A model generated the notes under the pieces. That model was not told where the DNA came from and did no database searches. It worked only from the letters and a program-made list of their open reading frames with translations. Positions 19,500 through 52,721 of a stretch of 64,000 nucleotides of DNA are shown one piece after another; position 1 is the first letter of the stretch, and each line of letters begins with the position of its first letter. Origin of the DNA: Candidatus Omnitrophota bacterium (GTDB lineage Bacteria; Omnitrophota; Gorgyraeia; Zapsychrales; Zapsychraceae). A program made the translations under genes and the position numbers. The stretch spans positions 18,197 through 82,196 of the forward strand of contig JAJDCA010000018.1 in assembly GCA_029261055.1 (NCBI GenBank). The letters run 5' to 3'.

Positions 19500-19503
19500 T
19501 AAA

Positions 19504-23989: not shown

Positions 23990-24105
23990 GCAGCTAAAAC
24001 ATAAAATAGAAAAATTTCAGAAGCTGTTAGGATAGAACAAACTCGTGTTTAGCATCGGGGAATTTCATGCTACAGCCCTCTTCCTTCAATAGCATCTCTC
24101 CGCTC

Positions 24106-26655
24106 TCAATGATAATCTGCTTCCACCGGGTACCCCAGAGACTTAGCTTTTTGAAGATCGGCGAGGGCTTGTTTTTTGTGGCCTAAGATAGAATGAGTTA
24201 GGGAACGTTGGTAATAAATCTTTGAAAAATTTGGGTTAATCGATAAAGCTTTATTGTAATCCGCCAAGGCCAATCGATACTGTTTGCGTCGCATGTACAC
24301 GACGCCCCGGTTACTGTAGGTGCCGGTGTAATAGGGGTTAATTTTGAGCGCCCGATTAAAATCGACAAGCGCTAAATCTTCTTCCCCTTTAATGCCATAC
24401 ACAATGCCGCGATTATTGTACGCTTCGGCGTAATTAGGATGCACCGCAATGGCTTTAGTGTAATGGGTGATGGCCACATCATATTGTTCGACTTGCCTAA
24501 ATACATTGCCGATATTGTAATACGCCTCCGCAAAGTTTGGACTAATGGACAATGCCATTTGAAAATCATTTAAGGCTAACTGAAACTGACCTAATTTCTT
24601 GTACACAAGTCCGCGATTGCTGTAGGCCTTTACGTACCGTGGATTAAGCGCCAGGGCTTTGTTGTAATCCGCTAAAGCCAATTCATGACTCCCCTGCATT
24701 TCGTACAGGATGCCGCGGTTATTGTAAAGCCCGGCCTCCTTGGGAGCGATCGACAATCCTTTATTGTAATCAATCAAGGCTAAATCATATTTACGCTGTG
24801 TCCTGTAAATATTGCCCCGATTATTGTACAGCTGTATTTTGTGAGGATTAATTTCCAGGGCCTTATTAAAATCAGCCAGGGCTAAATCATATTTACGCTG
24901 TTTGTCATAAATCACACCGCGATTACCTAAAGCCGCCACAAATCCAGGATTAATTTCCAGGGCCTTATTGTAATCTGCAATCGCTAAATCCGGCATCCCC
25001 TTGGCGTCATAACACAGCGCGCGGGAATTGTACGCTTCCAGATAAGTCGAATTCATACGTAAGGCCTTGCTTAAATCTTTAATCGCCAAATCATATTGCC
25101 CTTTAACCTTGTACACTAGCCCGCGATTAATGTAACCTTCAATGTAATTCTTATTGTACTTAACGGCATTGTTGTAACTTTGAAACGCCAAATCATACAT
25201 CTCCGCCTGATAATAGGCATTACCCATATTATTGTGCGACCGCGGCTTTCGGGGAGATTTACTAATAATGTCTCTCCACAATTTTACGGGTGTTTCCCAA
25301 ATTTTATTGCGTTGGACCGTTAAGTACGACAAAGTAAGGAAAATAATACTCATAACCGTTAAGAATTTCTTAAAGTTTTTCATGAGGTGATGCAGACCAA
25401 CGGACACCGCCAGAGAAAAACCCACCATTGGAAGATACATTTTATGTTCAAAAATAATATGCCGCCGTGGTACAAAATTTGGCGACAGTGTGAGAAAAAA
25501 CCAAAATATTCCGAAAGCACTTAATCCATACAGTATCTTTTTTTCTCTTTGTGTTGCGATCTGCGCACGCGTTAAATGATATCCACTTTTCGGTTTACCT
25601 GATCGTGAAAAAAGGTTACCCACTACCGCCAGCTTGACAGCACCTAAGAAAATCGCCAACAATAGGCTAAAACTAAAAAACACCGCTGGCTCAAAAAAGC
25701 TCTTTGACAAAGCGTAATCGTAGTCGACATTTTGGCCAATGGGTAAAATACACAATTTCAAAAATGTCATCATCACCCTAAACTGCGTAATAAAATAATT
25801 TCCAAACGTAATCACATCACCGGCATGGGAAGCCGAATATTTTATGCCAAACAGTTGGCCCATAAAATTAAATGAAAATATGAACGGAATAATCGCCATA
25901 AAAATGACAATGGGACTAAAATACAACAACTTCATCATGCCACGTGCCGTCTTTTTATTTTTCTTAGGCTTTTGAAGAAAAGCCCATTCCACAAGGATAA
26001 TCGTCAATGGCAGCGTAATCACAATTTCCTTGGTAAACATGCCGAGAACAGCGGCAATGGCTGCACCGACAAAATACAATACTGACCACGGATCACTGAC
26101 CACTGACCACTTATTACGCCCCTTAATGTAAAGACACAGGGACAACAAATAAAACAAGGTCGCCAAAGACGCCATCCGCTGCGTAATGTACGTCACCGCC
26201 TGCGTCTGCGCCGGGTGACACACAAAAATTAACGCCGCACACAGCGCAACGATCGAACCGTGTACAAACCCCCGAGGTTTGTATGCGGTTTTGTACCGCA
26301 TACAAACCTCGGGGGTTTGTACACGGTTAAGACTCTCCACTAACATCCCCACCAACCACCACACCAACACGGCATTCATCAAATGAATCACCATATTCGT
26401 GACATGATATCCAAAAGTATCCAACTGATGGAAATGGTAATTGACAGCAAAAGAAAAGAATCCAATAAACCGTGATGGCTGACTCAACATATCCCACATC
26501 GGCTTAATATCCATCACATCTTTAATGGTAGGATTATTGATAATAAAAATAAAATCATCAAACTGAAAGGAATGATGGAAGGTCTGCGAATACACCGTAA
26601 GGCCTACGAGGCAAATGAGCAATACGGGCAAGAATCGTGATAATTTTTTAATCAT
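24106..26655 (-). CDS. Paralog 7: PMT/TMTC-like membrane domain + TPR repeats
   Basis: SFQFDD, SQPSRFIGFFSFAVNYHFH; TPR array. Confidence 0.6.
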   Translation of the reverse strand: MIKKLSRFLPVLLICLVGLTVYSQTFHHSFQFDDFIFIINNPTIKDVMDIKPMWDMLSQPSRFIGFFSFAVNYHFHQLDTFGYHVTNMVIHLMNAVLVWWLVGMLVESLNRVQTPEVCMRYKTAYKPRGFVHGSIVALCAALIFVCHPAQTQAVTYITQRMASLATLFYLLSLCLYIKGRNKWSVVSDPWSVLYFVGAAIAAVLGMFTKEIVITLPLTIILVEWAFLQKPKKNKKTARGMMKLLYFSPIVIFMAIIPFIFSFNFMGQLFGIKYSASHAGDVITFGNYFITQFRVMMTFLKLCILPIGQNVDYDYALSKSFFEPAVFFSFSLLLAIFLGAVKLAVVGNLFSRSGKPKSGYHLTRAQIATQREKKILYGLSAFGIFWFFLTLSPNFVPRRHIIFEHKMYLPMVGFSLAVSVGLHHLMKNFKKFLTVMSIIFLTLSYLTVQRNKIWETPVKLWRDIISKSPRKPRSHNNMGNAYYQAEMYDLAFQSYNNAVKYNKNYIEGYINRGLVYKVKGQYDLAIKDLSKALRMNSTYLEAYNSRALCYDAKGMPDLAIADYNKALEINPGFVAALGNRGVIYDKQRKYDLALADFNKALEINPHKIQLYNNRGNIYRTQRKYDLALIDYNKGLSIAPKEAGLYNNRGILYEMQGSHELALADYNKALALNPRYVKAYSNRGLVYKKLGQFQLALNDFQMALSISPNFAEAYYNIGNVFRQVEQYDVAITHYTKAIAVHPNYAEAYNNRGIVYGIKGEEDLALVDFNRALKINPYYTGTYSNRGVVYMRRKQYRLALADYNKALSINPNFSKIYYQRSLTHSILGHKKQALADLQKAKSLGYPVEADYH
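26082..26110. repeat. Direct repeat cactgacca x3, site 0 of paralog 7
   Basis: actgaccacggatcactgaccactgaccac; encodes WSVVSDPWSV. Confidence 0.55.
26258..26326. repeat. In-frame hairpin cassette, site 1 of paralog 7 (32-bp perfect stem)
   Basis: ccgtgtacaaacccccgaggtttgtatgcggt tttgt accgcatacaaacctcgggggtttgtacacgg. Confidence 0.85.
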
Positions 26656-26690
26656 GCTTTATACCAATTCCAATAAATAATTACCAAAAA

Positions 26691-26766
26691 TTACTCTCGG
26701 TTTTCTCGAACGCTTTTACGAAAGAGACAACTCTGGTAGGATTGTCTCCTAGAATGCCGAGAGTAA
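26691..26766. promoter_or_regulatory. Compound hairpin in the 121-bp spacer between paralogs 8 and 7
   Basis: Outer arms ttactctcgg / ccgagagtaa flank an inner hairpin gagacaactctggtaggattgtctc. Confidence 0.35.
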
Positions 26767-26776
26767 ATCAGAAAAA

Positions 26777-28585
26777 TTATTTGTTGGATTTGGTTTCACT
26801 AAATATACCATTATTTAATGGCTTTGGTATTAACTGCTTGAGCACAAGCTTCCGATTGTAATGGGCCGCTGAAAATTGTGGATCAATTTGAATCGCTTTA
26901 TCAAAATCCTGCAAAGCCTTTTCCGCCTGATTCTGCATAAAAAATACAACCCCTCGACTGACATATGCCTCGGTTAAATAAACATCTAATTCCAAAGCCT
27001 TATTTAAATCGAACAATGCTTTGCCGAGCTGCCCTTGATCTTTGTAAACAATACCCCGATTGGCATACCCTTGAGCATAACTGGGATTAAGTTTAAGACC
27101 ATTGGAGTAATACATCAATGCCTTATCATAGTCTTTTTTACGTGCATACACCTGCCCCAGACTTGTATGCGCTTTAAAATATTTTGGGTTCAATTTTAAG
27201 GATTGCGTAAAATACTCAATAGCGACATCGTCTTCTCCTTTAAGCATGTACGCATATCCCAAATTATGATGCGCTCTTGATTTGTGCGGTGACTTTTGGA
27301 TTACATCCGTCCACAAAGTAATATCGTCCTTCCAAACTTTATTACGTTGAATTGTTAAATAAGAAAATAAACCAAGAATAATCAACATCGTTACGATAAA
27401 TTGCTTTCGATTCTTGATTAAATGATGCAAACCTACACTTACGACAATAGCAAACCCGACCATCGCCAAATAAAGTTTATGTTCATAAATAATATGCCGC
27501 CGGGGAATTAAGTTTGGCGCGAGTGTCAGAAAAAACCAAAATAGGCCAAACGCCACAAGCGAATACCGCCGCCGTATCTTTACCGCCACACCCAATAGGA
27601 CTGCAAGCAGCGCAAAACTTAATAATGTCGCCCGTTCAAACAAACTCTGAGACAAAGCAAAATCATAATCAAAATTCTGTCCAATGGGAAATACGGCTAA
27701 TTTCAAAAACGTTACAAATACACGTGCTTGAGTGAAAAAATATTTCCCAAATGTAATCACCTCCCCTTCGTGCGAGGCCGATATTTTGGGCGCAAATAAT
27801 AAACCTGAAAAATTGAATGAAAACAGGGCGGGGATGATCAAACAGAACAGTAATAAAACCGTAAACGAACCTCGTAGGTTCGGATTTCCGAACCTACGAG
27901 GTTCGTTTACGGTTAACTCCACCAAAATAATAGCTAAAGGCAACGTGATCACAATTTCTTTCGTGAACATGCCGAGGACGGCAGCCAACGCAGCTCCAAA
28001 GAAATGTACAGACGCGATTAATCGCGTCTCTACTCCTCGCCCCTTAATGTAAAGACACACCGAAAGCAAATAAAACAACGTCGCCAACGACGCCATCCGC
28101 TGCGCAATGTACGTCACCGCCTGCGTCTGCACCGGGTGACACACAAAAATCAACGCAGCACACAAAGCGACCGTCGAACCATGTACAAACCCCCGAGGTT
28201 TGTATGCGGTTTTGTACCGCATACAAACCTCGGGGGTTTGTACACGGTTAAGACTCCTCACAATCATCCCCACCAACCACCACACGAGCAAGGCATTCAT
28301 CAAATGGATCACCAAATTCGTGACATGATACCCCAACACATCCAACTGATGAAAATGATAATTCACGGCAAACGAAAGGAATCCCACAAACCGTGACGGC
28401 TGGCTCAACATATCCCACATCAACCCCACACGCGACACATCCTTAATCGCTGGGTTATTCACAATAAATGCGTAATCATCAAAATGGAAAGAATGCTGGA
28501 AGGTTTGAGAATAGACAACAATGCCTAAGAGGAAAATACATAAAATAGAAAAAAATTTACTGACCTTAATAGAAAAGAATCTCAT
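26777..28585 (-). CDS. Paralog 8: PMT/TMTC-like membrane domain + short TPR array
   Basis: SFHFDD, SQPSRFVGFLSFAVNYHFH; 602 aa. Confidence 0.6.
   Translation of the reverse strand: MRFFSIKVSKFFSILCIFLLGIVVYSQTFQHSFHFDDYAFIVNNPAIKDVSRVGLMWDMLSQPSRFVGFLSFAVNYHFHQLDVLGYHVTNLVIHLMNALLVWWLVGMIVRSLNRVQTPEVCMRYKTAYKPRGFVHGSTVALCAALIFVCHPVQTQAVTYIAQRMASLATLFYLLSVCLYIKGRGVETRLIASVHFFGAALAAVLGMFTKEIVITLPLAIILVELTVNEPRRFGNPNLRGSFTVLLLFCLIIPALFSFNFSGLLFAPKISASHEGEVITFGKYFFTQARVFVTFLKLAVFPIGQNFDYDFALSQSLFERATLLSFALLAVLLGVAVKIRRRYSLVAFGLFWFFLTLAPNLIPRRHIIYEHKLYLAMVGFAIVVSVGLHHLIKNRKQFIVTMLIILGLFSYLTIQRNKVWKDDITLWTDVIQKSPHKSRAHHNLGYAYMLKGEDDVAIEYFTQSLKLNPKYFKAHTSLGQVYARKKDYDKALMYYSNGLKLNPSYAQGYANRGIVYKDQGQLGKALFDLNKALELDVYLTEAYVSRGVVFFMQNQAEKALQDFDKAIQIDPQFSAAHYNRKLVLKQLIPKPLNNGIFSETKSNK
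27857..27914. repeat. In-frame hairpin cassette, site 2 of paralog 8 (28-bp perfect stem)
   Basis: aaccgtaaacgaacctcgtaggttcgga tt tccgaacctacgaggttcgtttacggtt; encodes NEPRRFGNPNLRGSF. Confidence 0.85.
28010..28029. repeat. 20-bp perfect ATTAAT palindrome, site 0 of paralog 8
   Basis: agacgcgattaatcgcgtct; encodes ETRLIASV. Confidence 0.75.
28183..28243. repeat. In-frame hairpin cassette, site 1 of paralog 8 (same type as paralog 7)
   Basis: gtacaaacccccgaggtttgtatgcggt tttgt accgcatacaaacctcgggggtttgtac. Confidence 0.85.
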
Positions 28586-28688
28586 TGTTTAAAGTTTAGA
28601 GATTCTGCTTATGATGTCAAGAAGAAATACGGCCAGAACTCCCCGAAAGCCCTAAAATAAACGGCAGTTGCGTGATAGGCAAATAGAA

Positions 28689-30611
28689 TTAATTTTGTGC
28701 TGCCACCGCTTTTTCGCGATTATCTTTAGCTTCTTGATTGGTAGGGTCGATTTGCAGGGCTTTATCAAAATCTTCAATAGCTAAATCAAGGCGGCCGCTG
28801 AGGCCGTGGGTCGCGCCGCGGTTGTTGTACGCCTGCAGGTAATTCGGCTTAATGGCTAAAGCTTGCGTGTAATCTTTAATGGCTAAATCGTATTTTTCCT
28901 TTAATCTTAATGTGTTTGCTCTATTGTAATAAGCTTCAGCGTAGTTGGGCTTAATCCTGATGGCACGGCTAAAATCAGCAATGGCCAGATTGTGGCGCGC
29001 CTGCAATCCATACACAAAACCGCGGTTATTAAATGCCTCATAATAATCACGATTAATTGTCACCGCCTTTGTAAAATCCGTAACGGCTTGATCGTAATCA
29101 TGCAGCTGATGATGCACATTGCCTCTATTATTGTAGGCCTCAGAATATTCGGGGTTAATGATGAGCGCCTGATCCAAATAATGCTTCGCCTGGGCATAGG
29201 CCCCGCGACTTAAATACGCGCAACCCAAATTAAAATGCGGTCGCGCTTTTTGGGGCGACTTCGCTACGACATCTGCCCACAAGGCCACTGGATCAGCCCA
29301 AATTTTATTACGTTGCACCGTCAAATAGGCAAAGACGGCAATGATCACGCAACATACTGCTACGTACTTTTTAATATTCTTCATCACCGCAAAAAGCCCT
29401 GCGCTTAGCGCAATAGAAAACCCGACTAACGGCAAATAAAGTTTGTGCTCAAAAATAATATTACGCCGCGGAATAAAATTGGGTGTCAGTGTCAGAAGAA
29501 ACCAAAATAGGCCAAAAGCCACCAGAGGATGCCGTTTGCGTATTTTCCAGGCAGCCACCAGGAGGCTGAAAATCAGGACGATGCTCAACAGAACCGACCA
29601 TTCAAAAATACTTTGCGACAAAGCAAAATCATAATCCAAATTTTGCCCGATGGGAAAAAGCGTTAGGCGAATAAACGTCGCCAACACACGAAACTGCGTT
29701 AGGACGTAAGGCCAAAACGTAATCACATCCCCAACGTGCGACTCCGACATTTTTGCTCCAAATAATAATCCGGAAATATTAAAAGAAAATACGGCGGGAA
29801 TGATTAGACAAAACAACAGTAGACAAACCGTAAACGAACCTCGTAGGTTCGGAAATCCGAACCTACGAGGTTCGTTTAGGGTTAACTCCACCCAAATAAT
29901 AGTCAACGGCAACGTAATCACAATTTCTTTAGTAAACATACCCAGAATAGCGGCAACGGCAGCTCCAAGAAAATAAGGAATACGTCTCCAAGTTTTAGTC
30001 ATCCGTCGTTTGTCATCAGTCGCCAGTATTTTGGCTTTTTCTGAAAGCTGAAGACTGACGTCTGATAGCTGATGGCTAACACGTCCCTTCATGTAAAGAC
30101 ACACCACCAACAAATAAAACATCGTCGCCAAAGATGCAAATCGCTGCGTAATGTACGCTACGGCTTGAGTCTGTACAGGATGACACAAAAAAATCAACGC
30201 GGCAAACAACGCGACGGTCGAACCGTAAACACACCCCGGGGGTCTGTTTACGGTACAAGACCTCAAACAGACCCCCGGGGTGTGTTTACGGTTACTAGCC
30301 CCAACAAGCATCCCCCCCAACCACCAGACCAACAGAGCATTAATCACATGAATCACGACATTCGTCATATGGTACCCAAACACATCCAGCCCATGAAAAT
30401 AATAATTCAACGCAAACGAATAAAAGGCCACAAACCTCGACGGCTGCTCCAAATATGTCGCAATCGATTTGACATTCCCTAAACTCCGAATACTTTCATT
30501 AGTGACAATAAAAACTTGATCATCAAATTGGAAAGGCGCCTGCAATGTATTGGCATACATCCATCCCCCTATGATCACAATAAGGGCGATGGCTAAAAAT
30601 TTCTTAATCAT
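28689..30611 (-). CDS. Paralog 9: PMT/TMTC-like membrane domain + TPR repeats
   Basis: PFQFDD, EQPSRFVAFYSFALNYYFH. Start refined to MIKKF (ATG 30611), preceded by GGAGG. Confidence 0.6.
   Translation of the reverse strand: MIKKFLAIALIVIIGGWMYANTLQAPFQFDDQVFIVTNESIRSLGNVKSIATYLEQPSRFVAFYSFALNYYFHGLDVFGYHMTNVVIHVINALLVWWLGGMLVGASNRKHTPGVCLRSCTVNRPPGCVYGSTVALFAALIFLCHPVQTQAVAYITQRFASLATMFYLLVVCLYMKGRVSHQLSDVSLQLSEKAKILATDDKRRMTKTWRRIPYFLGAAVAAILGMFTKEIVITLPLTIIWVELTLNEPRRFGFPNLRGSFTVCLLLFCLIIPAVFSFNISGLLFGAKMSESHVGDVITFWPYVLTQFRVLATFIRLTLFPIGQNLDYDFALSQSIFEWSVLLSIVLIFSLLVAAWKIRKRHPLVAFGLFWFLLTLTPNFIPRRNIIFEHKLYLPLVGFSIALSAGLFAVMKNIKKYVAVCCVIIAVFAYLTVQRNKIWADPVALWADVVAKSPQKARPHFNLGCAYLSRGAYAQAKHYLDQALIINPEYSEAYNNRGNVHHQLHDYDQAVTDFTKAVTINRDYYEAFNNRGFVYGLQARHNLAIADFSRAIRIKPNYAEAYYNRANTLRLKEKYDLAIKDYTQALAIKPNYLQAYNNRGATHGLSGRLDLAIEDFDKALQIDPTNQEAKDNREKAVAAQN
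29826..29883. repeat. In-frame hairpin cassette, site 2 of paralog 9 (same type as paralog 8 site 2; 1 mismatch)
   Basis: aaccgtaaacgaacctcgtaggttcgga aa tccgaacctacgaggttcgtttagggtt. Confidence 0.8.
30005..30083. repeat. Heptamer ctgaNNN repeat / inverted-repeat cassette, site 0 of paralog 9
   Basis: ...tcatcagtcgccag tattttggcttttt ctgaaag ctgaaga ctgacgt ctgatag ctgatgg...; encodes SEKAKILATDDKRR. Confidence 0.55.
30223..30291. repeat. In-frame hairpin cassette, site 1 of paralog 9 (27-bp stem, loop acggtacaagacctc)
   Basis: ccgtaaacacaccccgggggtctgttt ... aaacagacccccggggtgtgtttacgg. Confidence 0.85.
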
Positions 30612-32631
30612 TCGGTAAAACCTCCATGGCCTTACGCACCCAAGCACGTTGTTGCTGAGCTTTAGCGTAACCGGGATCAATCGCTAAAGCACGGTTGTAA
30701 TCTTCCAAGGCCAAGGCGTATTGTTTTTGGTGTGCATAAATATTACCCCGGTTAAAATACGCTTCTTTAAAATTCAGATTAATCGCAATCGCCTTATTGT
30801 AATCCCACAAAGCTAAATCCTGCAACTGTTGCGCCGCAAAAATACCACCACGATTGCTGTAAGCTTGCGCGTTACGCGGATCTATTTTAATCGCAGCACC
30901 ATAATCTTTAAGGGCCTTTTCATATTGCCCTAAAGAAAAATACACATTCGCCCGGTTAACGTATCGACTGGCATTCGCCGGATTCAAAACAATCGCCGCA
31001 TCAAAATCGACCAAAGCCAAATCATATTTCTTTTGTATCTGATAAATGACCCCCCGGTTATTATGTGCAATAGCCGATTCCGAATCAATCAAAAGCGCCT
31101 GCGTAAAATCAGCCAAAGCTAAATCATAACGTCGTTCCATTTGATAAACAGATCCCCGATTATTGTAGGCCGACACATTATTGGGATTAAGCATCAAAGC
31201 TTGATTGAGATGCGTCAAAGCCAAACCCGTATCCCTCCTCTGCAAATAATACACCTTCCCTAAATTATTATGCGGCCGCGATTTGTGCGGCGACTTTTGT
31301 ACCACATCTTCCCACAACGTAATTTCATTGTTCCAAACTTTATTTCGCTGAAACGTCAAACACGAAAAAATAATAATCACACCAGACACAACGGAAACAA
31401 ACATTCTGGAATTTCTAATTAAAGAATACATCCCTGCTGTCAACGCCAAACACAGCCCAACGCTTGGCAAATACATGCGATGTTCAAATATGACATCCGC
31501 AATCGGAATAAAACTGGACTCCACCGACAGCGTAAGGAAAAACCAAATAATGCCTAGTGTCACAAGCTTATTACGTGTACGCATCCAAATCGCAAATCCA
31601 AATAACACAATACATGTCAGCATACTTAACAAAGTCGGCCATTCAAAAATACTGTACGCCAAAGGAAAGTCATAATCAAGATTCTGTCCAACTGGAAACA
31701 GGAATAATTTTAAATACGTTACCAGCACTTTAAACTGCGTCAAAAAGTACACCGATCGTGTCATTGTCGCCACGCCACTGGCTTCAGACATACTTTCCTG
31801 AGCCAACACTCCCGACAAATTAAACGAATACAAACAAGGAATAATTACAGCAAATGACAATATCAAAACAATGTAATACCATGGGACATCAATAATTCTT
31901 TTCGATCCTTCCCTCCTAAAAAAATAAAACTCCAACACAAGAATCATAAACGGCAGCGTAAACACAATTTCCTTACTGAACATACCCAGCACAGCCGCGA
32001 TCGCAGCTCCCACAAAACGTACAGACGCGATTAATCGCGTCTCTGCACATCGTCCTTTCATGTAAAGACACACCGAAAGCAAATAAAACATCGTTCCCAA
32101 CAGCGTAAACCGCTGCGCAATGTACGTCACCGCCTGCGTCTGCACGGGGTGACACAAAAAAATAAACGTTGCACACAGAGCGACGGTCGAACCGTAAACA
32201 CACCTCGGGGGTGTGTTTTTGATTTTTCGCCGTAAACACACCCCCGAGGTGTGTTTACGGTTAATGCTCCGAACACCCATCCCCACCAACCACCACACAA
32301 GCAAAGCATTAATCACATGAATCCCCACATTCACCACATGATACCCAAACACATCCAACTTATGAAAATGGTAATTCACCGCAAAACTCAAATACGGAAT
32401 CAAGCGTCGCGCCGACACCCCGAGTGTATGATCCATCAAATGCTTCGTCGTATTGGTCCATGCAATTGCAATATTAAAAACATCCCTGATCTGCGGATTT
32501 TCCACAATGACACGCGTATCATCAAAATGGAAAGAACTATGAAAAGTGTTAGCGTAAATAGCTCCGCCTAAAATACAAATAATGAATACAAAAAATAATT
32601 TGTTAATTCTCATATTTAAATATTTAATCAT
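30604..32631 (-). CDS. Paralog 10: PMT/TMTC-like membrane domain + TPR repeats (divergent N-terminal motif SFHFDDTRVIVENPQIRD)
   Basis: Same architecture; shares long near-identical stretches with paralog 11 (SVESSFIPIADVIFEHRMYLPSVGLCLA). Start uncertain: 32631, 32613 or 32685. Confidence 0.55.
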   Translation of the reverse strand: MIKYLNMRINKLFFVFIICILGGAIYANTFHSSFHFDDTRVIVENPQIRDVFNIAIAWTNTTKHLMDHTLGVSARRLIPYLSFAVNYHFHKLDVFGYHVVNVGIHVINALLVWWLVGMGVRSINRKHTSGVCLRRKIKNTPPRCVYGSTVALCATFIFLCHPVQTQAVTYIAQRFTLLGTMFYLLSVCLYMKGRCAETRLIASVRFVGAAIAAVLGMFSKEIVFTLPFMILVLEFYFFRREGSKRIIDVPWYYIVLILSFAVIIPCLYSFNLSGVLAQESMSEASGVATMTRSVYFLTQFKVLVTYLKLFLFPVGQNLDYDFPLAYSIFEWPTLLSMLTCIVLFGFAIWMRTRNKLVTLGIIWFFLTLSVESSFIPIADVIFEHRMYLPSVGLCLALTAGMYSLIRNSRMFVSVVSGVIIIFSCLTFQRNKVWNNEITLWEDVVQKSPHKSRPHNNLGKVYYLQRRDTGLALTHLNQALMLNPNNVSAYNNRGSVYQMERRYDLALADFTQALLIDSESAIAHNNRGVIYQIQKKYDLALVDFDAAIVLNPANASRYVNRANVYFSLGQYEKALKDYGAAIKIDPRNAQAYSNRGGIFAAQQLQDLALWDYNKAIAINLNFKEAYFNRGNIYAHQKQYALALEDYNRALAIDPGYAKAQQQRAWVRKAMEVLPND
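32023..32042. repeat. 20-bp perfect ATTAAT palindrome, site 0 of paralog 10
   Basis: agacgcgattaatcgcgtct. Confidence 0.75.
32192..32260. repeat. In-frame hairpin cassette, site 1 of paralog 10 (27-bp perfect stem)
   Basis: ccgtaaacacacctcgggggtgtgttt / 15-nt loop / aaacacacccccgaggtgtgtttacgg. Confidence 0.85.
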
Positions 32632-34516
32632 ATCCACCCATACAATCTGCGTACATACTTTCAAGCATTTTACCCTTACGATCAATCTCTTTGACTTTAA
32701 CAGTGTTACCCAACGCTTGACAAGTATTCACAAGATGAAGATAAGATTTCTTGAAATCAGGATTTATTTTTAAAGCCTTTTTGTAATATTTCATTGCCAA
32801 TGCATGTTGATGTTTGGCGCCATAAATTAACCCAATATTATCGTAAGTCGTCGTCAAATTGGGATTTAACTTAACCGCCATTTCGTAATCAGCCAAGGCT
32901 TTGTCATACTGCTGCGTAAGATGATATGCCGTCCCTCGATTATTGTACGTTACGGCAGATGTTGGGTTTAAAACCAATGCCCGATCATAATCTCTAATGG
33001 CCAAACCATACCTCCCCTTTTTCTCAAAAAAATGCCCTCTATTGGTGTATGCTTTAACATGGTAAGGATCAATATGTAAGGCCTTATTGAAATGCGCTAG
33101 TGCTAAATCATATTTACTTTCTTTCAAATACGCGGCCCCTAAAATACCGTGACCTCTTGCTTTATTTGGCGATTTTTTCACCACATCTTCCCACAACGTC
33201 ATTTCATTGTTCCAAACTTTGTTTCGCTGAAACGTTAAATAAGAAAAAACAATCACAATCACACACGCAACCGTTACAAGCGCTCTGGAATTTTTTATGA
33301 AAACTAACAGCCCAGCTGTAAACGCCAAACACAGCCCAACGCTTGGCAAATACATGCGATGTTCAAATATGACATCCGCGATCGGAATAAAACTGGACTC
33401 CACCGACAACGTCAGAAAAAACCAAATAATGCCCAACGAAACAAGGCGATGACGTGAAAACAATTTTACGGCTGCACCTAACAATACAACGCACATCATC
33501 ATACTCAAAAAAGTCGACCATTCAAAAATACTTTGCGCCAAAGGAAAATCATAATCAAGATTTTGCCCGACTGGAAACAGGAATAACTTTAAATAAGCCA
33601 ACACCACTTTAAACTGCGTCAAAAAATAAACCGACCGCGTCATCGCCGCCACGCCACTGGATTCAGACACACTTTCCTGAGCCAACACTCCCGACAAATT
33701 AAACGAATACAAACAAGGAACAATTACAGCAAATGACAATATCAAAACAATGTAATACCACGGAACATCAATAATTCTTTTCGATCCTTCCTTTCTAAAA
33801 AAATAAAACTCCAACACAAGAATCATAAACGGCAGCGTAAACACAATTTCCTTACTGAACATACCCAGCACAGCCGCGACAGCAGCCCCCACAAAACGTA
33901 CAGACGCGATTAATCGCGTCTCTGCACATCGTCCTTTCATGTAAAGACACACCGAAAGCAAATAAAACATCGCCCCCAACAACGTAAACCGCTGCGCAAT
34001 GTACGTCACCGCCTGCGTCTGCAGAGGATGACACAGAAAAATCAAGGCTGCACACAAAGCGACTGTCGAACCGTAAACGAACCTCGGGGGTTCGGATTTC
34101 GGGAATTCAGATTTCCGAACCCCCGAGGTTCGTTTACGGTTAAAAATCTTCACCACCATCCCCACCAACCACCACACAAGCAAAGCATTCACCACATGAA
34201 TCCCTACATTCACCACATGATACCCAAACACATCCAACTTATGAAAATGGTAATTCACCGCAAACGTCAAAAACGGAATAAGCCGTCGTGCAGACAACCC
34301 CTGCGTATGCTCAAGCAAATGCTTGGTGGTATCCATCCACACAACCTTAATATTTTGAATATTTCTAATCTGCGGATTCTCCACAATGACACGCGTGTCG
34401 TCAAAATGAAAAGTGCTGTGGAAGGTGTTGGCGTAAATAATAATGCCGAGGCAAACAAGAAAAATAGCAGGAAAAAACTTTTTAATCCCCTGACATAATG
34501 TTAGATGGACTTTCAT
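32624..34516 (-). CDS. Paralog 11: PMT/TMTC-like membrane domain + TPR repeats
   Basis: TFHFDDTRVIVENPQIRN; close duplicate of paralog 10 in the membrane domain. Start uncertain: 34516, 34555 or 34576. Confidence 0.55.
   Translation of the reverse strand: MKVHLTLCQGIKKFFPAIFLVCLGIIIYANTFHSTFHFDDTRVIVENPQIRNIQNIKVVWMDTTKHLLEHTQGLSARRLIPFLTFAVNYHFHKLDVFGYHVVNVGIHVVNALLVWWLVGMVVKIFNRKRTSGVRKSEFPKSEPPRFVYGSTVALCAALIFLCHPLQTQAVTYIAQRFTLLGAMFYLLSVCLYMKGRCAETRLIASVRFVGAAVAAVLGMFSKEIVFTLPFMILVLEFYFFRKEGSKRIIDVPWYYIVLILSFAVIVPCLYSFNLSGVLAQESVSESSGVAAMTRSVYFLTQFKVVLAYLKLFLFPVGQNLDYDFPLAQSIFEWSTFLSMMMCVVLLGAAVKLFSRHRLVSLGIIWFFLTLSVESSFIPIADVIFEHRMYLPSVGLCLAFTAGLLVFIKNSRALVTVACVIVIVFSYLTFQRNKVWNNEMTLWEDVVKKSPNKARGHGILGAAYLKESKYDLALAHFNKALHIDPYHVKAYTNRGHFFEKKGRYGLAIRDYDRALVLNPTSAVTYNNRGTAYHLTQQYDKALADYEMAVKLNPNLTTTYDNIGLIYGAKHQHALAMKYYKKALKINPDFKKSYLHLVNTCQALGNTVKVKEIDRKGKMLESMYADCMGGYD
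33902..33921. repeat. 20-bp perfect ATTAAT palindrome, site 0 of paralog 11
   Basis: agacgcgattaatcgcgtct. Confidence 0.75.
34069..34141. repeat. In-frame hairpin cassette with internal partial duplication, site 1 of paralog 11
   Basis: aaccgtaaacgaacctcgggggttcgga tttcgggaattcagattt tccgaacccccgaggttcgtttacggtt; encodes KSEFPKSEPP (duplicated KSEP). Confidence 0.8.
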
Positions 34517-36935
34517 TATTGATTTGATATCCCAAAGATTGCGCCTTAAAAGCATTTTGCTGGGCCTGGGAAGCATTCCCCATTGCTTTGTAAATTAAGG
34601 CACGCTGGTAATAGGCCCCAGCATATTTCGGATTGATCGTTAAAACTTTACCATAATCAGCCAAGGCAAGACGGTATTTTTTCAACTGAGTGTACACAAC
34701 GGCACGGTTGTAATACGCCTCCCAAAAATCCGGATTAATTTTAATCGCTTTATGAAAATCTTTCAAGGCCGCAGCATGCTGCTTCAAGGCCAACTGAACC
34801 AATCCTCTATTATTGTACGCTCTCAAATACGATGAATTAATTTTAATAGCCTGGCTGTAATTTTCCAAAGCCGCGGCGTAATCTTTTTTTAATGTGTACA
34901 CAAGCCCACGATTACTCAAAAATTCTTCCTTTTTATTAGGAGACTGCCTTAATGCCTGGGTGTAATCAACCAAAGCTAAATCATATTGCCCTTGCGCTTT
35001 GTACATATTGCCCCGGTTACTGTAAAACTGGGGCATGTCCGGATTAATCGTAATCGCCTGCTTAAAATCCGCCGTCGCCAAATCATATTGACGTTTAACT
35101 TTGCGAATAATCCCGCGATTACTGTACGCCGACGCTAACAAAGGATCATTTTTAATCGCTTTATTGTAATCACTCAACGCCTGATCATACCGCCTTTGAT
35201 CCTTGTAAAAATTCCCGCGATTATTGTACGACTCAGCATTGTTGGGATCCAATTGAATACTTTGATTAAAATCTGCCAAAGCCAAATCATGCAGCCCCTT
35301 CTTTTGATACACAACGCCACGATTGTCATACCCTTTAACATTGCCAGCATCCATTTCAATGGACTTCGTCAAATATTCAAGAGCCAAATCATATTCACCT
35401 CTGGCAAAATAGGAATATCCTAAATTAAGATACGGCCGCATCTTACCGGGAGATTTCCGAACAACATCACTCCACAAAGAAACTGCATTTTGCCACACCC
35501 TGTTTCTTTGAATCGTTAAAGAAGAATAGACACTCAAAATAATCAACATGCTAACCACACATTTCTTTTTATTATTAAAACTTAAATACAATAAACACGG
35601 TAATATCATACAAAACCCGATGGATGCTAAATACAATTTATGCTCAAAAATAATATGCCGCCTTGGCACCAAATTGGCTGCCATCGTCAGGAAAAACCAA
35701 AATATCCCAAAAGAAATCACCGCATGCCGATGCCTTAATCTCATTGCTAACATTACCAACCCCGTCAAAAAAACAAAACTCAACACAACCGGCCATTCAA
35801 AGATTCCTTGCGACAATGGAAAATCATAATCAAGATTTTGCCCGATGGGAAAAACCAATAAACGAATAAAAACCACAAAAACACGTGCTTGCGTTAAAAA
35901 ATATTTCCCAAACGTAATCACATCCCCCGCATGCGACGCCGACATCTTTGGCCCGAACAATATCCCGAAAACATTAAACGAAAAAACGGCGGGGATGATC
36001 AAACAAAACAATAATAAAAATACCCAACCGTAAACCGTAAACACACCCCGGGGGTCTGTTTGAGGTCTTGTACCGTAAACAGACCCCCGGGGTGTGTTTA
36101 CGGTTCCAGTCGATCGCAAAAACATAAACTCAACAAGTAAAATCATCAAAGGCAACGTAATCACAATTTCTTTGGTGAACATCCCAAGGACAGCAGCCAC
36201 CGCAGCTCCGAAGAAATAAAAAATGGGCCGCCAATTCTTAGACGTCAGTCGTCTGCTATCAGCTGTCAGTATTTTGTTTTTTTCTGAAGACTGATGACTG
36301 ATGGCTGATGACTGATAGCTAATACGTCCCTTTATGTAAAAACACAACGAAAGTAAATAAAACAATGTCGCCAAAGACGCAAACCGCTGACTAATGTACG
36401 TCACCGCCTGAGTCTGAACAGGATGGGCCACAAAAAGCAATGCGGCAAACAAACCGTAAACGAACCCAGAAAGTTTGCGTTCGCAAACTCTCACGGTTCG
36501 TTTACGGTTAAAAGTCTTCACCAACATCCCCACCAACCACCACACCAACAAAGAATTAACCACATGAATCACAAGATTCGTCACATGATACCCAAAAACA
36601 TTTAACCCATGAAAATGATAATTTAACGCAAAGGTGAGAAAAGCGACATAACGTGAAGGCTGGCCGAGAATACTGCCAAACGTAGTAATATTTTTGAAAT
36701 CTTTAATGTAAGAATTACCAGCAACAAATTTTACATCATCAAATTGAAAAGGACTGTGGAGGGTATTTGCATAAAGGGCAACACCAAGAAGGCCTATGAC
36801 AAAAAAATAGTGACAGAAACCGTTTTTTAAAAAACCTTCACTTATTTTCTTAAAAAAGGGTCTGTCACTATTTTTTTGGCTGAACAATTTTTTGGGCCAA
36901 TCTCTTAATTCAAATAATTTTTTAACTCTGTCCAA
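34482..36935 (-). CDS. Paralog 12: PMT/TMTC-like membrane domain + TPR repeats
   Basis: PFQFDD, GQPSRYVAFLTFALNYHFH; about 12 TPR units; long N-terminal extension. Confidence 0.6.
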   Translation of the reverse strand: MDRVKKLFELRDWPKKLFSQKNSDRPFFKKISEGFLKNGFCHYFFVIGLLGVALYANTLHSPFQFDDVKFVAGNSYIKDFKNITTFGSILGQPSRYVAFLTFALNYHFHGLNVFGYHVTNLVIHVVNSLLVWWLVGMLVKTFNRKRTVRVCERKLSGFVYGLFAALLFVAHPVQTQAVTYISQRFASLATLFYLLSLCFYIKGRISYQSSAISHQSSEKNKILTADSRRLTSKNWRPIFYFFGAAVAAVLGMFTKEIVITLPLMILLVEFMFLRSTGTVNTPRGSVYGTRPQTDPRGVFTVYGWVFLLLFCLIIPAVFSFNVFGILFGPKMSASHAGDVITFGKYFLTQARVFVVFIRLLVFPIGQNLDYDFPLSQGIFEWPVVLSFVFLTGLVMLAMRLRHRHAVISFGIFWFFLTMAANLVPRRHIIFEHKLYLASIGFCMILPCLLYLSFNNKKKCVVSMLIILSVYSSLTIQRNRVWQNAVSLWSDVVRKSPGKMRPYLNLGYSYFARGEYDLALEYLTKSIEMDAGNVKGYDNRGVVYQKKGLHDLALADFNQSIQLDPNNAESYNNRGNFYKDQRRYDQALSDYNKAIKNDPLLASAYSNRGIIRKVKRQYDLATADFKQAITINPDMPQFYSNRGNMYKAQGQYDLALVDYTQALRQSPNKKEEFLSNRGLVYTLKKDYAAALENYSQAIKINSSYLRAYNNRGLVQLALKQHAAALKDFHKAIKINPDFWEAYYNRAVVYTQLKKYRLALADYGKVLTINPKYAGAYYQRALIYKAMGNASQAQQNAFKAQSLGYQINNESPSNIMSGD
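36035..36103. repeat. In-frame hairpin cassette, site 2 of paralog 12 (the paralog 9 site-1 element in inverted orientation)
   Basis: ccgtaaacacaccccgggggtctgttt gaggtcttgtaccgt aaacagacccccggggtgtgtttacgg; the loop is the reverse complement of the loop at 30250..30264. Confidence 0.85.
36241..36325. repeat. Heptamer ctgaNNN repeat with inverted copy, site 0 of paralog 12
   Basis: gtcagtcgtctgctatcagctgtcag tattttgttttttt ctgaaga ctgatga ctgatgg ctgatga ctgatag; encodes SEKNKILTADSRRL. Confidence 0.6.
36452..36509. repeat. Nested-palindrome cassette, site 1 of paralog 12
   Basis: aaccgtaaacgaacc cagaaagtttgcgttcgcaaactctca cggttcgtttacggtt. Confidence 0.75.
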
Positions 36936-37402
36936 GTTTTTTTGCCAATAATACCATCGGCCTTAAGTTCATGCTCTTTCTGAAATTTCTTAATAGCTCC
37001 ACGGGATTTACTCCCAAGTTTACCATCAATTGACCCCTCATAATACCCAGCATTTTTCAAAGCCGCCTGAACTTTTTTGGCACTCACAGCCACGCGAATA
37101 ATACGCAAACCATCTTTTTGGGCTTGTAATTTCGAAGGAGTCATTTTTAATCCTCTCCCTTCATAACTAGCCTCTTCAATCGGCTCAATAATCGGACCTG
37201 AATCCATACCTTCCACCTGACCAGCCAATTCCCGGACTTCATATCTCAATTCTTCAATCACCCGATCACGTTCGTCCACCTTCCGTTCTAACTGAGCAAC
37301 CTTAACCTGTACATTATTTGGTCCTACAGGCGGCATTGCTGTTGAACACCCCGCCGCTAATACCCCTACAATCATAACTCCGAATAATAATTTCCACTTC
37401 AT
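36905..37402 (-). CDS. Lipoprotein with coiled-coil and C-terminal peptidoglycan-binding (PG_binding_1-like) domain
   Basis: Signal and lipobox LAAGC; C-terminus GYYEGSIDGKLGSKSRGAIKKFQKEHELKADGIIGKKTW. Start ATG 37402 is preceded by an AAGGAG RBS. Confidence 0.6.
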   Translation of the reverse strand: MKWKLLFGVMIVGVLAAGCSTAMPPVGPNNVQVKVAQLERKVDERDRVIEELRYEVRELAGQVEGMDSGPIIEPIEEASYEGRGLKMTPSKLQAQKDGLRIIRVAVSAKKVQAALKNAGYYEGSIDGKLGSKSRGAIKKFQKEHELKADGIIGKKTWTELKNYLN

Positions 37403-37463
37403 ATCATTTCTCCTTTTTGTTTTCATTAATCTGAGGCGTATTTTTGGTGCCGACAGGAAAGGT

Positions 37464-39278: not shown

Positions 39279-39283
39279 AACGA

Positions 39284-39360
39284 CCCCTTAATGGGCATGA
39301 TAAATCATGCCCCTACAAACGACACTCCTCGTACGGGCATGATTTATCATGCCCCTAAAA
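39284..39360. repeat. Two intergenic REP-like hairpins (gggcatgat NN atcatgccc) between GH15 and the BatC-like gene
   Basis: ccccttaatGGGCATGATaaATCATGCCCctac ... cgtacGGGCATGATttATCATGCCCctaaaa. Confidence 0.75.
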
Positions 39361-41378: not shown

Positions 41379-41396
41379 AATTTAAAAACCATTAAC

Positions 41397-41442
41397 GCAC
41401 CTCGTAGGTGTAATCGCACCTACGAGGTGCGTTTATTTACGG
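41397..41442. terminator. Intergenic hairpin between the two vWA genes (17-bp perfect stem)
   Basis: aacgcacctcgtaggtg taatcg cacctacgaggtgcgtt followed by tatttacgg; shares the CCTCGTAGG core with the site-2 cassettes. Confidence 0.4.
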
Positions 41443-45146: not shown

Positions 45147-45165
45147 TTACAACAACCTCTTGTTA

Positions 45166-46161: not shown

Positions 46162-46183
46162 AATTACTCCTCCTTTAAAATAA

Positions 46184-46212
46184 CTGTACGGGCGGTTCGC
46201 GAACCGCCCCTA
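46184..46212. repeat. REP-like GC-core hairpin between the moxR start and the upstream gene stop
   Basis: gtacgggcggttcgcgaaccgcccctac; a sister of the copy at 52722. Confidence 0.7.
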
Positions 46213-46224
46213 CTCCAATTTTTT

Positions 46225-47235: not shown

Positions 47236-47263
47236 AAAAAGTACGTACGCGCGTACGTACTTT
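47236..47263. repeat. 28-bp perfect palindrome between the SNase-fusion gene and the MNT gene
   Basis: aaaagtacgtacgcgcgtacgtactttt. Confidence 0.7.
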
Positions 47264-47586: not shown

Positions 47587-47595
47587 TTTATTGAT

Positions 47596-52130: not shown

Positions 52131-52236
52131 ACCCCTACGCCCCATGTAAATTTGCCCTACGTACAGGCATGATTCATCATGCCCCTTATTGTAAACCTGC
52201 CCTACGTACGGGCATGATTCATCATGCCCCTTATTG
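52131..52236. repeat. Tandem (about 45-bp period) REP-like hairpin repeats between the CE4 deacetylase and YqeY genes
   Basis: gccctacgtacaggcatgattcatcatgccccttattg then gccctacgtacgggcatgattcatcatgccccttattg, preceded by a partial cccctacg. Confidence 0.75.
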
Positions 52237-52695: not shown

Positions 52696-52721
52696 TTCAT
52701 CTCCTATGTTTACTGTACGGG

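Follow-up and report, generated by a model that had tools for sequence, protein, structure and literature searches.

REP-like palindromic cassettes at two loops of a tandem membrane-protein family in a Candidatus Omnitrophota bacterium

Within the 64,000-nucleotide stretch of a Candidatus Omnitrophota genome analysed here (contig JAJDCA010000018.1, assembly GCA_029261055.1; hereafter the window), the same hairpin-forming cassette is found at different sites of two paralogous genes, apparently in opposite orientations. The initial annotation took such cassettes for mobile or invertible units that can land at any permissive site in either orientation, which raises the question of what kind of element they are, how they came to occupy their sites and what sets their orientation. 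The host genes form a tandem array of 12 membrane glycosyltransferase paralogs (9858..36935, minus strand), whose products are mutually 50-82% identical and combine an N-terminal GT-C-fold membrane domain (PMT-like) with C-terminal TPR repeats. In an AlphaFold2 model with a pLDDT of 84.7, the only low-confidence internal stretches (130-150, 209-222 and 271-293) are the three insert sites. Two of these three loops are occupied by the cassette family, loop 1 in 12 of 12 paralogs and loop 3 in 4 of 12, and the remaining loop carries other palindromes; we infer that the insert-bearing loops are cytoplasmic.

The cassette shared by paralogs 9 and 12

The pair that raised the question, together with two features that bear on its history, is as follows:

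30221..30293, minus strand: paralog 9, loop 1, palindromic doublet of 73 bp; frame AAC CGT AAA..., predicted peptide NRKHTPGVCLRSCTVNRPPGCVYG
36033..36105, minus strand: paralog 12, loop 3, 73 bp; frame shifted on by one base (A ACC GTA...), predicted peptide TVNTPRGSVYGTRPQTDPRGVFTV
36026..36032, minus strand: tandem 7-bp duplicate of the cassette end in paralog 12 (AACCGTA followed by AACCGTA)
11291..11325, minus strand: monomer, a single hairpin unit in loop 3 of paralog 1, with flanks homologous to those of paralog 12

The two cassettes are reverse complements at 73 of 73 bases, from AACCGT to ACGGTT, and the 69-bp core recognised initially (30223-30291 and 36035-36103) sits within this match. 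The stems are indeed identical, each perfectly paired over 29 bp and 94% paired over 34 bp, and the loops are reverse complements as claimed, since the central 15 nt read acggtacaagacctc in one copy and gaggtcttgtaccgt in the other. The edges of the match are sharp, with mismatches beginning at the third flanking base and near-total mismatch from the sixth base outward. Global alignment of the 150-bp flanks gave identities of 0.64 and 0.59, taken by judgement rather than against a control to be about the level of unrelated sequence under that scoring. The same DNA thus lies in non-homologous loops (loop 1 and loop 3) and is read in differing frames of the two paralogs. As RNA, the paralog 9 copy is predicted to fold with -63.7 kcal/mol (z -12.6).

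The “opposite orientation” of a near-perfect palindrome is a flip of its short centre only, and arm-to-arm recombination could be an alternative cause of such a flip. The 30221-30293 copy is open in both orientations in the loop-1 frame, so that the logic of open frames gives no check on the orientation of its loop. Flipping the copy in paralog 12 would introduce two stops. In paralog 12 the 73 bp of the cassette and the 7-bp duplicate add up to 80 bp, 45 bp more than the 35-bp monomer found in paralog 1, and the frame is therefore preserved. The monomer of paralog 1 is likely to represent an earlier state of the loop-3 site of paralog 12, and the 73-mer found there is most simply explained as a recent copy of the paralog 9 loop-1 cassette, laid over the older monomer. 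A Logan contig assembled from run SRR15505515 is 100% identical to 36077-39318 and ends inside the cassette.

Architecture, catalogue and reading frames

As a family, the cassettes are palindromic DNA repeats resembling REPs. Their unit is a hairpin of about 35 bp that runs from AACCGTAAAC through a stem core of 5 variable bp closing with ACC, a loop of 5 nt and the matching strand of the stem to GTTTACGGTT, such that an outer 10-bp clamp (AACCGTAAAC / GTTTACGGTT) encloses a variable inner stem. Most often two units are joined in inverted orientation as a doublet of 58, 70 or 73 bp, corresponding to the architecture of REPINs, in which each half is itself a hairpin and the whole doublet forms one long hairpin. 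Clamp-bearing copies in the window amount to 15 doublets and one monomer, all in frame. Besides those given above they are:

11612..11684, minus strand: paralog 1, loop 1, 73 bp
14241..14298, minus strand: paralog 2, loop 1, 58 bp
16579..16648, minus strand: paralog 3, loop 1, 70-bp perfect palindrome without spacer
19109..19181, minus strand: paralog 4, loop 1, 73 bp
21645..21702, minus strand: paralog 5, loop 1, 58 bp, outer ends CGTC...GACG
23581..23638, minus strand: paralog 6, loop 1, 58 bp
26256..26328, minus strand: paralog 7, loop 1, 73 bp, both inner loops flipped relative to other cassettes (the other dimer arrangement)
28177..28249, minus strand: paralog 8, loop 1, 73 bp, at 99% identity with its counterpart in paralog 7
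27857..27914, minus strand: paralog 8, loop 3, 58 bp, CCTCGTAGG core, closed by a TAG stop in the loop-1 frame but stop-free in its own
29826..29883, minus strand: paralog 9, loop 3, 58 bp, the paralog 8 loop-3 cassette with flipped centre and one mismatch
32190..32262, minus strand: paralog 10, loop 1, 73 bp
34069..34141, minus strand: paralog 11, loop 1, 73 bp, of a type differing from that of its sister paralog 10
36452..36509, minus strand: paralog 12, loop 1, 58 bp, partly decayed (89% complementary)

The family pattern AACCGTNNNCNNACCYCSRGGGT matches 18 times in the window and not once in 100 shuffles. The ends read CCGTA, CCGTG or CCGTC and are base-paired with ACGG of the opposite arm, CGTC being confined to paralogs 5 and 6; in REPs the conserved terminal tetranucleotide, GTAG or CGTC, is unpaired. 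Both dimer arrangements of the asymmetric monomer occur. The doublet arms measure 27-35 nt and are mostly 94-100% complementary, with three copies at 86-89%. In a set of 17 cassettes, 98% of the long hairpin is paired and both sides have changed at 14 of its 26 pairs, a level that none of 500 shuffles attained. For the inner hairpins the pairing amounts to 89%. The predicted RNA folds are very stable, at -50 to -64 kcal/mol (z -10 to -15). Since the arms change together and one sequence is read in different frames, it is the palindrome, as DNA (or RNA), that is under constraint, rather than the encoded peptide. The flanks hold no consistent target-site duplication, the sole direct repeat being the 7-bp duplicate at 36026-36039, and neither Rfam at gathering thresholds nor a tRNA search gave a match.

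To judge from the open frames, the cassettes would be translated as 19-24 additional loop residues, the predicted peptides including NRKHTPGVCLR and TVNTPRGSVYGTRPQTDPR. In the alignment of homologues, loop 1 spans 42 residues in 75 of about 115 homologues and 46 or 55 in the paralogs of the window, homologues without the insert align across the insertion site, and about 100 other homologues are without any such insert. An exact-protein look-up of paralog 9 and of P0008 returned no record, and the cluster look-up gave no names.

All 16 copies are stop-free in the frame used. The 12 loop-1 copies start at codon position 1 and all three loop-3 doublets at codon position 3, and the remaining frame contains a TAA stop in most copies. 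The 73-mer at loop 3 is stop-free in the observed orientation only, the CCTCGTAGG variant contains a TAG in the loop-1 frame and is present at the other loop only, and the loop-1 frame is not open in the TCGTAGG variant. Reading frame thus explains the orientation of the cassettes, and selection for an open frame would then decide which frames, orientations and loop variants survive. Landing in either orientation at any permissive site is therefore too broad a description, given that the loop-3 73-mer is open one way only and the CCTCGTAGG cassette is stopped in the loop-1 frame.

The two loop-3 cassettes with this core, in paralogs 8 and 9, had been described as one mismatch apart. This is true over the 58 bp when one of them is flipped (identity 0.98), while in the same orientation they differ at three positions (0.95). 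The similar-core intergenic hairpin mentioned alongside them is also present, and it shares the cores and differs in its stems and clamps:

41391..41442, minus strand: intergenic hairpin doublet with CCTCGTAGG / CCTACGAGG cores and with stems and clamps unlike those of the cassettes

It begins directly after the stop codon of the gene at 41437-42489 and is followed by a T-run, and by this position and T-run it resembles a terminator. Such a reading is plausible for this intergenic hairpin only; for the intragenic cassettes it was rejected, as the matches there rest on T-rich membrane-helix codons.

Relatives and known systems

Copies of the AACCGT clamp outside the gene family were found neither in the 37 kb of the window beyond the array nor on two further contigs of the same sample. 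A search for a nearby transposase, Y1 TnpA, Cas1 or recombinase, which had been proposed as a check on mobility, turned up no transposase, Cas1, recombinase, integrase or invertase in the 64 kb (ORFs of at least 100 residues on the minus strand and one plus-strand gene), and none of the scanned ORFs of the window encodes a PF01797-type transposase (RAYT/Y1). Among 185,579 species genomes, a set that does not include the source genome, the family pattern gave 43 matches, of which three are real hairpins, each single-copy and in other Omnitrophota. A metagenome scan yielded no match to the full-doublet pattern and one element for the monomer pattern, on two short contigs (L045 and L046), and a scan of viral contigs yielded no match. 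Related hairpins lie in intergenic positions in other Omnitrophota and in a metagenome; in L003 and L038 the hairpin begins at the TAA of the upstream gene. A syntenic relative with 45% protein identity (L047, from an independent ENA assembly) carries perfect palindromes at both loops, read in the third frame, from which the TAA has been lost via clamp changes that are mirrored on the opposite arm. In another Omnitrophota genome a different, GTAG-tagged REP stands in frame at the same loop, and GTAG REP doublets also occur in the 64-kb window. A protein search with the concatenated cassette peptides gave no match and is uninformative on cassettes in other protein families. No paper linking Omnitrophota with REP or palindromic repeats was found in the literature.

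The Omnitrophota cassettes are of a kind of element already known from Rickettsia and other bacteria. Like the Rickettsia palindromic elements (RPEs; Ogata et al., 2000, as summarised in PMC10969869), they are in-frame palindromic repeats in coding genes, predicted to be read through as extra peptide at positions that the fold tolerates, their short forms are REP units or dimers, and no dedicated transposase is known. By contrast, RPEs are spread over many unrelated genes of an obligate intracellular alphaproteobacterium, while the cassettes are seen at fixed loops of one paralogous family, in a candidate phylum whose members are free-living or epibiotic. In length, RPE-1 reaches about 150 bp and the cassettes 35-73 bp; the likeness to RPEs described here is one of anatomy. 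RPE-4 and RPE-6 have been classed as CGTC-type REPs, and intragenic REP dimers encode 20-30 residues (PMC3733652). With these GTAG/CGTC dimers (Di Nocera et al., 2013, PMC3733652) the cassettes share stems of about 8-9 bp, 5-nt loops, inverted dimers that form one long hairpin, a similar number of encoded residues (20-30) and the occurrence of two inserts in some genes; REP ends can also provide stop codons, comparable to the hairpins at the upstream TAA in L003 and L038. They differ in that the terminal motif of the cassettes is CCGT(A/G/C), itself paired by ACGG, with CGTC in two copies only, in that an outer 10-bp clamp surrounds a variable inner stem, and in that abundant extragenic copies are not seen.

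REPINs (Bertels and Rainey, 2011, PMC3116915; PMC3337134) likewise consist of two inverted REP units with a short spacer, predicted to form a single hairpin, and their doublets are better conserved than the singlets, which are remnants, as is also the case for the cassettes. However, REPINs are described as extragenic, as numbering tens to hundreds of copies and as flanking a RAYT gene, none of which was found in the available sequence. PARCELs (PMC2996958), too, are translated intragenic palindromic DNA that can be read in more than one way, but their units are longer, stand in tandem within genes for surface proteins and spread horizontally, whereas here single doublets lie in loops of membrane proteins. 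Among other known elements, an integron attC site was rejected because the clamp misfits the core sites, the elements lie within ORFs and the window has no integrase; a MITE with target duplication because no consistent direct repeat stands in the flanks; and a CRISPR-like array on anatomy.

Age and origin of the cassettes

The cassettes are younger than their host genes. Paralogs 7 and 8 have cassettes that are 0.99 identical and proteins that are 0.70 identical, and for paralogs 2 and 6 the values are 0.95 and 0.61. Conversely, paralogs 10 and 11 agree at 0.82 in their proteins and at 0.89 and 0.92 in the flanks, yet their cassettes agree at only 0.79 and are of different types. That cassettes are often far more alike than the genes that carry them points to renewal or exchange at the DNA level. 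Together with the 73 bp shared between two frames and two loops, the sharp edges and the cassettes of the same kind at both loops of the relative L047, this discordance bears out the view that they are discrete units at the level of DNA and did not evolve locally as codons. Of the proposal that they are mobile or invertible, the part that is supported is their discreteness; free landing in either orientation at any site is too broad. The filling of loop 1 in 12 of 12 paralogs, always in one frame, suggests instead that cassettes were inherited through gene duplication and exchanged from cassette to cassette.

The history that we consider probable has three steps: REP-like elements would first have colonised the loops, would then have been carried along while the gene family duplicated, and would since have been renewed and exchanged by copy-paste between occupied loops. 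The favoured process for the last step would be gene conversion or repair in which the ends shared by the cassettes serve as guides, since these are self-complementary and could pair with a donor in either orientation; alternatively, a RAYT-like transposase that acts on single strands, with its gene in another part of the genome, may be responsible. As the 64 kb contain no transposase and the window no AACCGT-clamp copy outside the family, the mechanism (conversion or transposition) is only inferred. Against the REP-based reading as a whole also speak the rarity of the strict pattern, single-copy in three of the 185,579 species genomes, the lack of a consistent target-site duplication and the base-paired terminal tag.

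Pure transposition, by which every cassette would be an independent REPIN-type insertion mobilised in trans by a RAYT (IS200/IS605-type Y1) and the loops would just be tolerated places, is unlikely, though much of the anatomy fits it. Y1 transposases of the IS200/IS605 type leave no target duplication, and no consistent one is seen here; the edges are sharp, two sites are used in two frames, the relative L047 uses a different frame at the same loop, and both arrangements of the asymmetric monomer were found. In another genome this loop is taken by a REP of a different family, and GTAG-type doublets, associated elsewhere with RAYTs, are present in the window. Ordinary REPs, however, are scattered through extragenic space, whereas the clamp-bearing copies, 16 of 16, are confined to one gene family and absent from the 37 kb flanking it. 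Furthermore, the window has no Y1 transposase, the loop-1 copies agree in frame and position in 12 of 12 cases, as expected for descent by gene duplication, and CGTC-type REPs are without a dedicated transposase (PMC3733652).

It is quite unlikely, if conceivable, that the palindromes are no ordinary scattered selfish repeats but self-renewing and restricted to this family, with hairpin breakage and repair continually copying them between cytoplasmic loops in any register and orientation that remains open, and the host exploiting them, be it for diversification or recombination of the paralogs or for control of expression by very stable mRNA hairpins. Slightly less credit still is given to the idea that the hairpins owe their retention to an effect on the host genes, as ribosome pausing sites after a membrane helix, RNase III or stability sites of the long operon transcript, or DNA cruciforms that promote recombination between paralogs. 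Palindromy maintained with compensatory changes would be expected of such a structural element, but regeneration of each cassette as an inverted duplicate yields compensatory patterns as well. The folds are very stable, though without a match in Rfam. Retention of the loop-1 cassette in 12 of 12 paralogs, the restriction to one family and the perfect palindromes at the same loops of a relative with 45% protein identity also speak for selection, but about 100 homologues do without an insert, the loop-1 copy of paralog 12 is decaying, loop 3 is filled in only 4 of 12 paralogs, and the same loops hold different palindrome families.

Recombinase-dependent invertible or exchangeable cassettes, similar to integron attC sites or shufflons, are suggested by the imperfect palindromes of 58-73 bp with flipped centres, but this explanation is largely refuted and highly improbable: the window encodes neither integrase nor invertase, the elements lie inside reading frames and not between gene cassettes, the clamps by reading of the sequence misfit the attC core sites RYYYAAC / GTTRRRY, and no long inverted repeats surround invertible gene segments. 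An assembly artefact or chance similarity is next to negligible, for although short-read graphs break at repeated arms and the Logan contig ends within the cassette, 18 matches stand against none in shuffles, every copy is in frame and stop-free, and the independent assembly of run SRR15505515 contains identical sequence, as the ENA assembly of the relative contains comparable cassettes.

Rickettsia and scattered intragenic REPs provide the best-known coding palindromes, to which this locus adds a compact and information-rich case in the barely studied Omnitrophota. It amounts to a natural experiment, in which palindromes have been renewed at matching loops of 12 old paralogs and are read in two frames in the window and in the remaining one in a relative, and it indicates that selection on the reading frame alone can dictate which variants and orientations of an intragenic palindromic repeat survive. 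Inserts of this kind lengthen loops in predicted proteins, break short-read assemblies at their arms and could mislead homology-based annotation of Omnitrophota genes. If the restriction to one family holds genome-wide, the locus would be suited to separating transposition from gene conversion guided by palindromes.

Palindromic inserts of the glycosyltransferase array

The cassettes are carried by 12 tandem paralogous genes (P1–P12; 9858-36935, minus strand), in which Pfam recognizes C-terminal TPR repeats only, and the closest named homologues of the encoded proteins carry the annotation Candidatus Omnitrophota or Omnitrophica. Between paralogs, the membrane domains are 50-70% identical (82% for P10/P11). 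Within the protein, palindromic inserts lie at three places, loops 1, 2 and 3, which are the model's only low-confidence internal stretches (residues 130-150, 209-222 and 271-293); all three would be cytoplasmic, as we infer from the parity of the modelled helices, the FDD motif in the first external GT-C loop and the basic residues at each of them. The loop-1 span is 42 residues in 75 of about 115 homologues, but 46 or 55 in the paralogs of the window, indicating that the cassettes are lineage-specific additions.

Each unit is built as a hairpin of some 35 bp, with a clamp on the outside (AACCGTAAAC ... GTTTACGGTT), an inner stem with a core that differs among copies (ACACC, AGACC, CAAACC, CGAACC) and a loop of 5 nt (TCGGG, CCGGG or TCGTA, or their complements). 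At loop 3 of P1 a unit stands alone (11291-11325), and a further one, AACCGTAAACCAACCCCCGGGGTTGGTTTACGGTT, is intergenic on two metagenome contigs. The 15 further window copies are inverted doublets of 58, 70 or 73 bp, with both arrangements of the asymmetric unit present (TCGGG...CCCGA in most copies, CCCGA...TCGGG in P7 and P8). Matches to the family pattern number 18 in the window and 0 in 100 shuffles, and as RNA the doublets fold with -50 to -64 kcal/mol (z -10 to -15).

Pairing and co-variation in an alignment of 17 cassettes, with 500 shuffles as null
Long hairpin: 26 pairs; 98% of cells paired; 14 pairs changed on both sides; reached by 0/500 shuffles
Inner hairpins: 18 pairs; 89% of cells paired; 7 pairs changed on both sides; reached by 182/500 shuffles (percentage paired: 0/500)

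Since the arms pair in both the long and the inner hairpins, a stem variant shows up at four positions simultaneously, as expected if the cassette is formed by inverted copying of its own unit, or if its palindromy is preserved. It is the palindrome that is maintained. At 16579-16648 a perfect, spacer-less palindrome of 70 bp lies inside the coding region; in E. coli with SbcCD, palindromes of comparable length are unstable.

Two other insert types occur in loops 2 and 3:
28009-28030, 32022-32043, 33901-33922, 18941-18962, 16391-16431: second palindrome family GAGACGCGATTAATCGCGTCT, encoding 'ETRLIAS', in frame at loop 2 of P3, P4, P8, P10 and P11
18794-18815: variant GAGCCGCGATTAATCGCGGCT of the second family, loop 3 of P4
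14002-14112, 29979-30092, 36222-36335: third insert type, loop 2 of P2, P9 and P12

The second family has a two-site behaviour like that of the main cassettes, and another small palindrome is nested within its P3 copy. The third type is an imperfect palindrome of ~85 bp, rich in TCAG/CTGA and encoding '...SEKxKIL...' (fold z -2.4 to -4).

Reverse-complement cassettes and the reading frame

30221-30293: cassette at loop 1 of P9
36033-36105: cassette at loop 3 of P12
27857-27914, 29826-29883: CCTCGTAGG-core cassettes at loop 3 of P8 and P9
41391-41442: intergenic hairpin

The initial annotation, whose site 2 is loop 3 here, described the P9 and P12 cassettes as having identical stems and reverse-complement loops. 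Read directly, the two stretches are exact reverse complements over 73/73 bases, from AACCGT to ACGGTT, of which the inner 69 had been annotated. Each copy is itself almost fully palindromic (perfect over 29 bp, 94% over 34 bp), so that the reverse complement amounts to identical stems with a flipped 15-nt centre. Outside the match, mismatches begin at the third flanking base and affect nearly every added position from the sixth; the 150-bp flanks have 0.64 and 0.59 identity in global alignment, which we take to be about the level of unrelated sequence under this scoring. The CCTCGTAGG-core cassettes, reported as one mismatch apart, indeed differ at a single position once one of them is flipped, while the intergenic hairpin, noted for its similar core, has cores in common with the cassettes but different stems.

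All 12 loop-1 cassettes start at codon position 1 (AAC CGT AAA) and all three loop-3 doublets at codon position 3 (A ACC GTA AAC); the third frame reads CCG TAA in most window copies. In the loop-1 frame the 73-mer of P9 and P12 is open in both orientations, whereas in the loop-3 frame the observed orientation is open and flipping introduces two stops. In the loop-1 frame the CCTCGTAGG variant would be interrupted by a TAG, and it occurs at loop 3 only. Frame selection thus accounts for the orientation and for which variant is found where. The proposal of mobile or invertible units landing at any permissive site in either orientation is therefore too strong: the units are discrete at the DNA level, but their orientation and variant are filtered by frame, and no mobilising enzyme was found among the ORFs scanned in the window.

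A Logan contig (SRR15505515_373644) matches 36077-39318 at 100% identity and terminates inside the cassette, right where its first arm ends and the repeated arms break the assembly graph. In k-mer assemblies these palindromes cause breaks, and in many public assemblies the host genes will be cut at them.

Cassette history and proposed modes of copying

Cassette identity compared with that of the host genes
P9 loop 1/P12 loop 3: cassettes 1.00 (flipped); flanks taken as unrelated
P7/P8: cassettes 0.99; proteins 0.70
P5/P6: cassettes 0.95; proteins 0.68
P2/P6: cassettes 0.95 (flipped); proteins 0.61
P10/P11: cassettes 0.79, of different types; proteins 0.82, flanks 0.89 and 0.92

The age of the paralogs and the retained symmetry argue against passive relics of one ancestral insertion, which would have lost symmetry. 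Symmetry is being lost in the P12 loop-1 cassette, with arms 89% complementary; the other cassettes have been renewed or exchanged and are younger than their host genes. The cassettes are discrete DNA units, read in several frames, discordant with host-gene history and ORF-filtered, and the initial annotation was right that they are not locally evolved codons.

A combined explanation, which we regard as fairly probable, is that the cassettes would have originated from a REP-type element, that the family would then have been amplified through gene duplication, and that cassettes would since have been copied between loops already occupied. The P9 loop-1 cassette clusters with those at loop 1 of the related P4 (0.86) and P10 (0.85), suggesting that P9 loop 1 was probably the donor of the 73-bp pair. 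P12 loop 3 has flanks in common with P1, where loop 3 has a monomer, and retains a 7-bp duplicate of the cassette end, giving a net change of 45 bp, exactly 15 codons. A broken cassette could pair with the donor in either orientation, its ends being self-complementary, so that repair-type conversion would account for both orientations without a dedicated enzyme. Alternatively, a RAYT-like (Y1-type) single-strand transposase acting in trans may have copied the cassettes, which is possible, as the window has GTAG-tagged REP doublets of the type accompanying RAYTs elsewhere (PMC3116915). The initial annotation had proposed a search for a transposase, Cas1 or recombinase gene nearby; no transposase, Cas1, integrase or invertase is present among the minus-strand ORFs of at least 100 residues and the one plus-strand gene of the window. 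No consistent target duplication was seen at the cassettes, and there are no clamp-bearing copies in the window's 37 kb outside the array or in an extra 15 kb of the same sample outside the paralogs. For the recent events, the combined explanation favours conversion somewhat over transposition.

Features outside the array:
39288-39359, 52166-52228, 46177-46222, 52709-52748, 56234-56296: GTAG-tagged REP units or inverted doublets (GTAGGGGCATGAT..., GTAGGGGCGG...), intergenic except the doublet 56234-56296, within a 1072-residue ORF (53745-56963)
44064-47229, 47263-47997, 52991-53428: nuclease/MoxR, HepT-like pair and PIN-domain region
48020-51277, 53745-56963, 60561-63914: ORFs of >1000 residues each, with no Pfam match at E <= 0.001

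In a MoxR/DUF58/VWA (Bat-like) operon, the MoxR ATPase gene lies between a gene for a YhcG-type PDDEXK nuclease and one of the DUF1016/SNase type, with a nucleotidyltransferase/HepT-like pair and a PIN-domain gene next to them.

Related inserts and known palindromic elements

An ENA contig (L047, ERZ26222911) carries GH15, PG-binding and GT-C/TPR genes in the same order as window 34482-39278, and its GT-C/TPR protein is 45% identical to P12. Its two cassettes (3253-3310 and 3561-3620) are perfect palindromes, one at each of loops 1 and 3, and both are read in the third frame, which a TAA closes in the copies of the window; with the clamp changed to CCCAAAAC or CCGCAAAC the TAA is lost, and the other arm shows a matching change. 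That one loop has the element in different registers in the two genomes speaks for its having been acquired or replaced repeatedly, and against simple descent. On another contig of the window's sample, a further paralog (L048) carries three clustered units at loop 1, in the usual frame; among them are CACCTACGAGGTG units that resemble those of the 41.4-kb intergenic hairpin. In three other Omnitrophota genomes (L003, ~6210, minus strand; L038, ~4674, minus strand; L016, 2298) related hairpins are intergenic and start at, or beside, the TAA that ends the upstream gene (TAA CCGTAAAC...), a stop that the element may supply or overlap. An Omnitrophota MAG (L049; GCA_035292445.1, DATDQB010000014.1) has a GTAG-tagged 28-bp perfect palindrome, GTAGGGGCGGTTCGCGAACCGCCCCTAC, different from the cassettes, in frame in two homologous GT-C/TPR genes (3337-3364, 4147-4174, 6612-6639), one copy lying at loop 1 and encoding 'GAVREPPL'. 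The loops are thus sites at which REP-type palindromes recur across the phylum.

The strict cassette pattern was multi-copy in none of 185,579 species genomes scanned, and no report of REP or palindromic repeats of this kind in Omnitrophota was found in the literature. Dimers or groups make up more than half of the documented intragenic REPs and code for 20-30 residues; certain genes hold two of them, and REP ends are able to supply stop codons (PMC3733652). Rickettsia palindromic elements (RPEs), whose in-frame, fold-compatible insertions form the classic case in the account that PMC10969869 takes from Ogata et al. (2000, 2002), include RPE-4 and RPE-6, which are CGTC-type REPs, a type with no dedicated transposase (PMC3733652). 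The cassettes have the REPIN architecture of a doublet forming a hairpin (PMC3116915, PMC3337134) and are in frame like RPEs and intragenic REPs, but in the available sequence they lack extragenic dispersal, an unpaired GTAG or CGTC tag and a linked RAYT. In the way they work they would resemble RPEs or intragenic REP dimers, and they are at most putative members of the REPIN-RAYT system in the strict sense. Coding palindromes of this kind are already known, and their occurrence in Omnitrophota is the addition; less usual are the confinement to one tandem gene family, the reading of the element in all three frames when the two genomes are taken together, with clamp changes removing stops, and a 70-bp perfect palindrome without spacer inside a gene.
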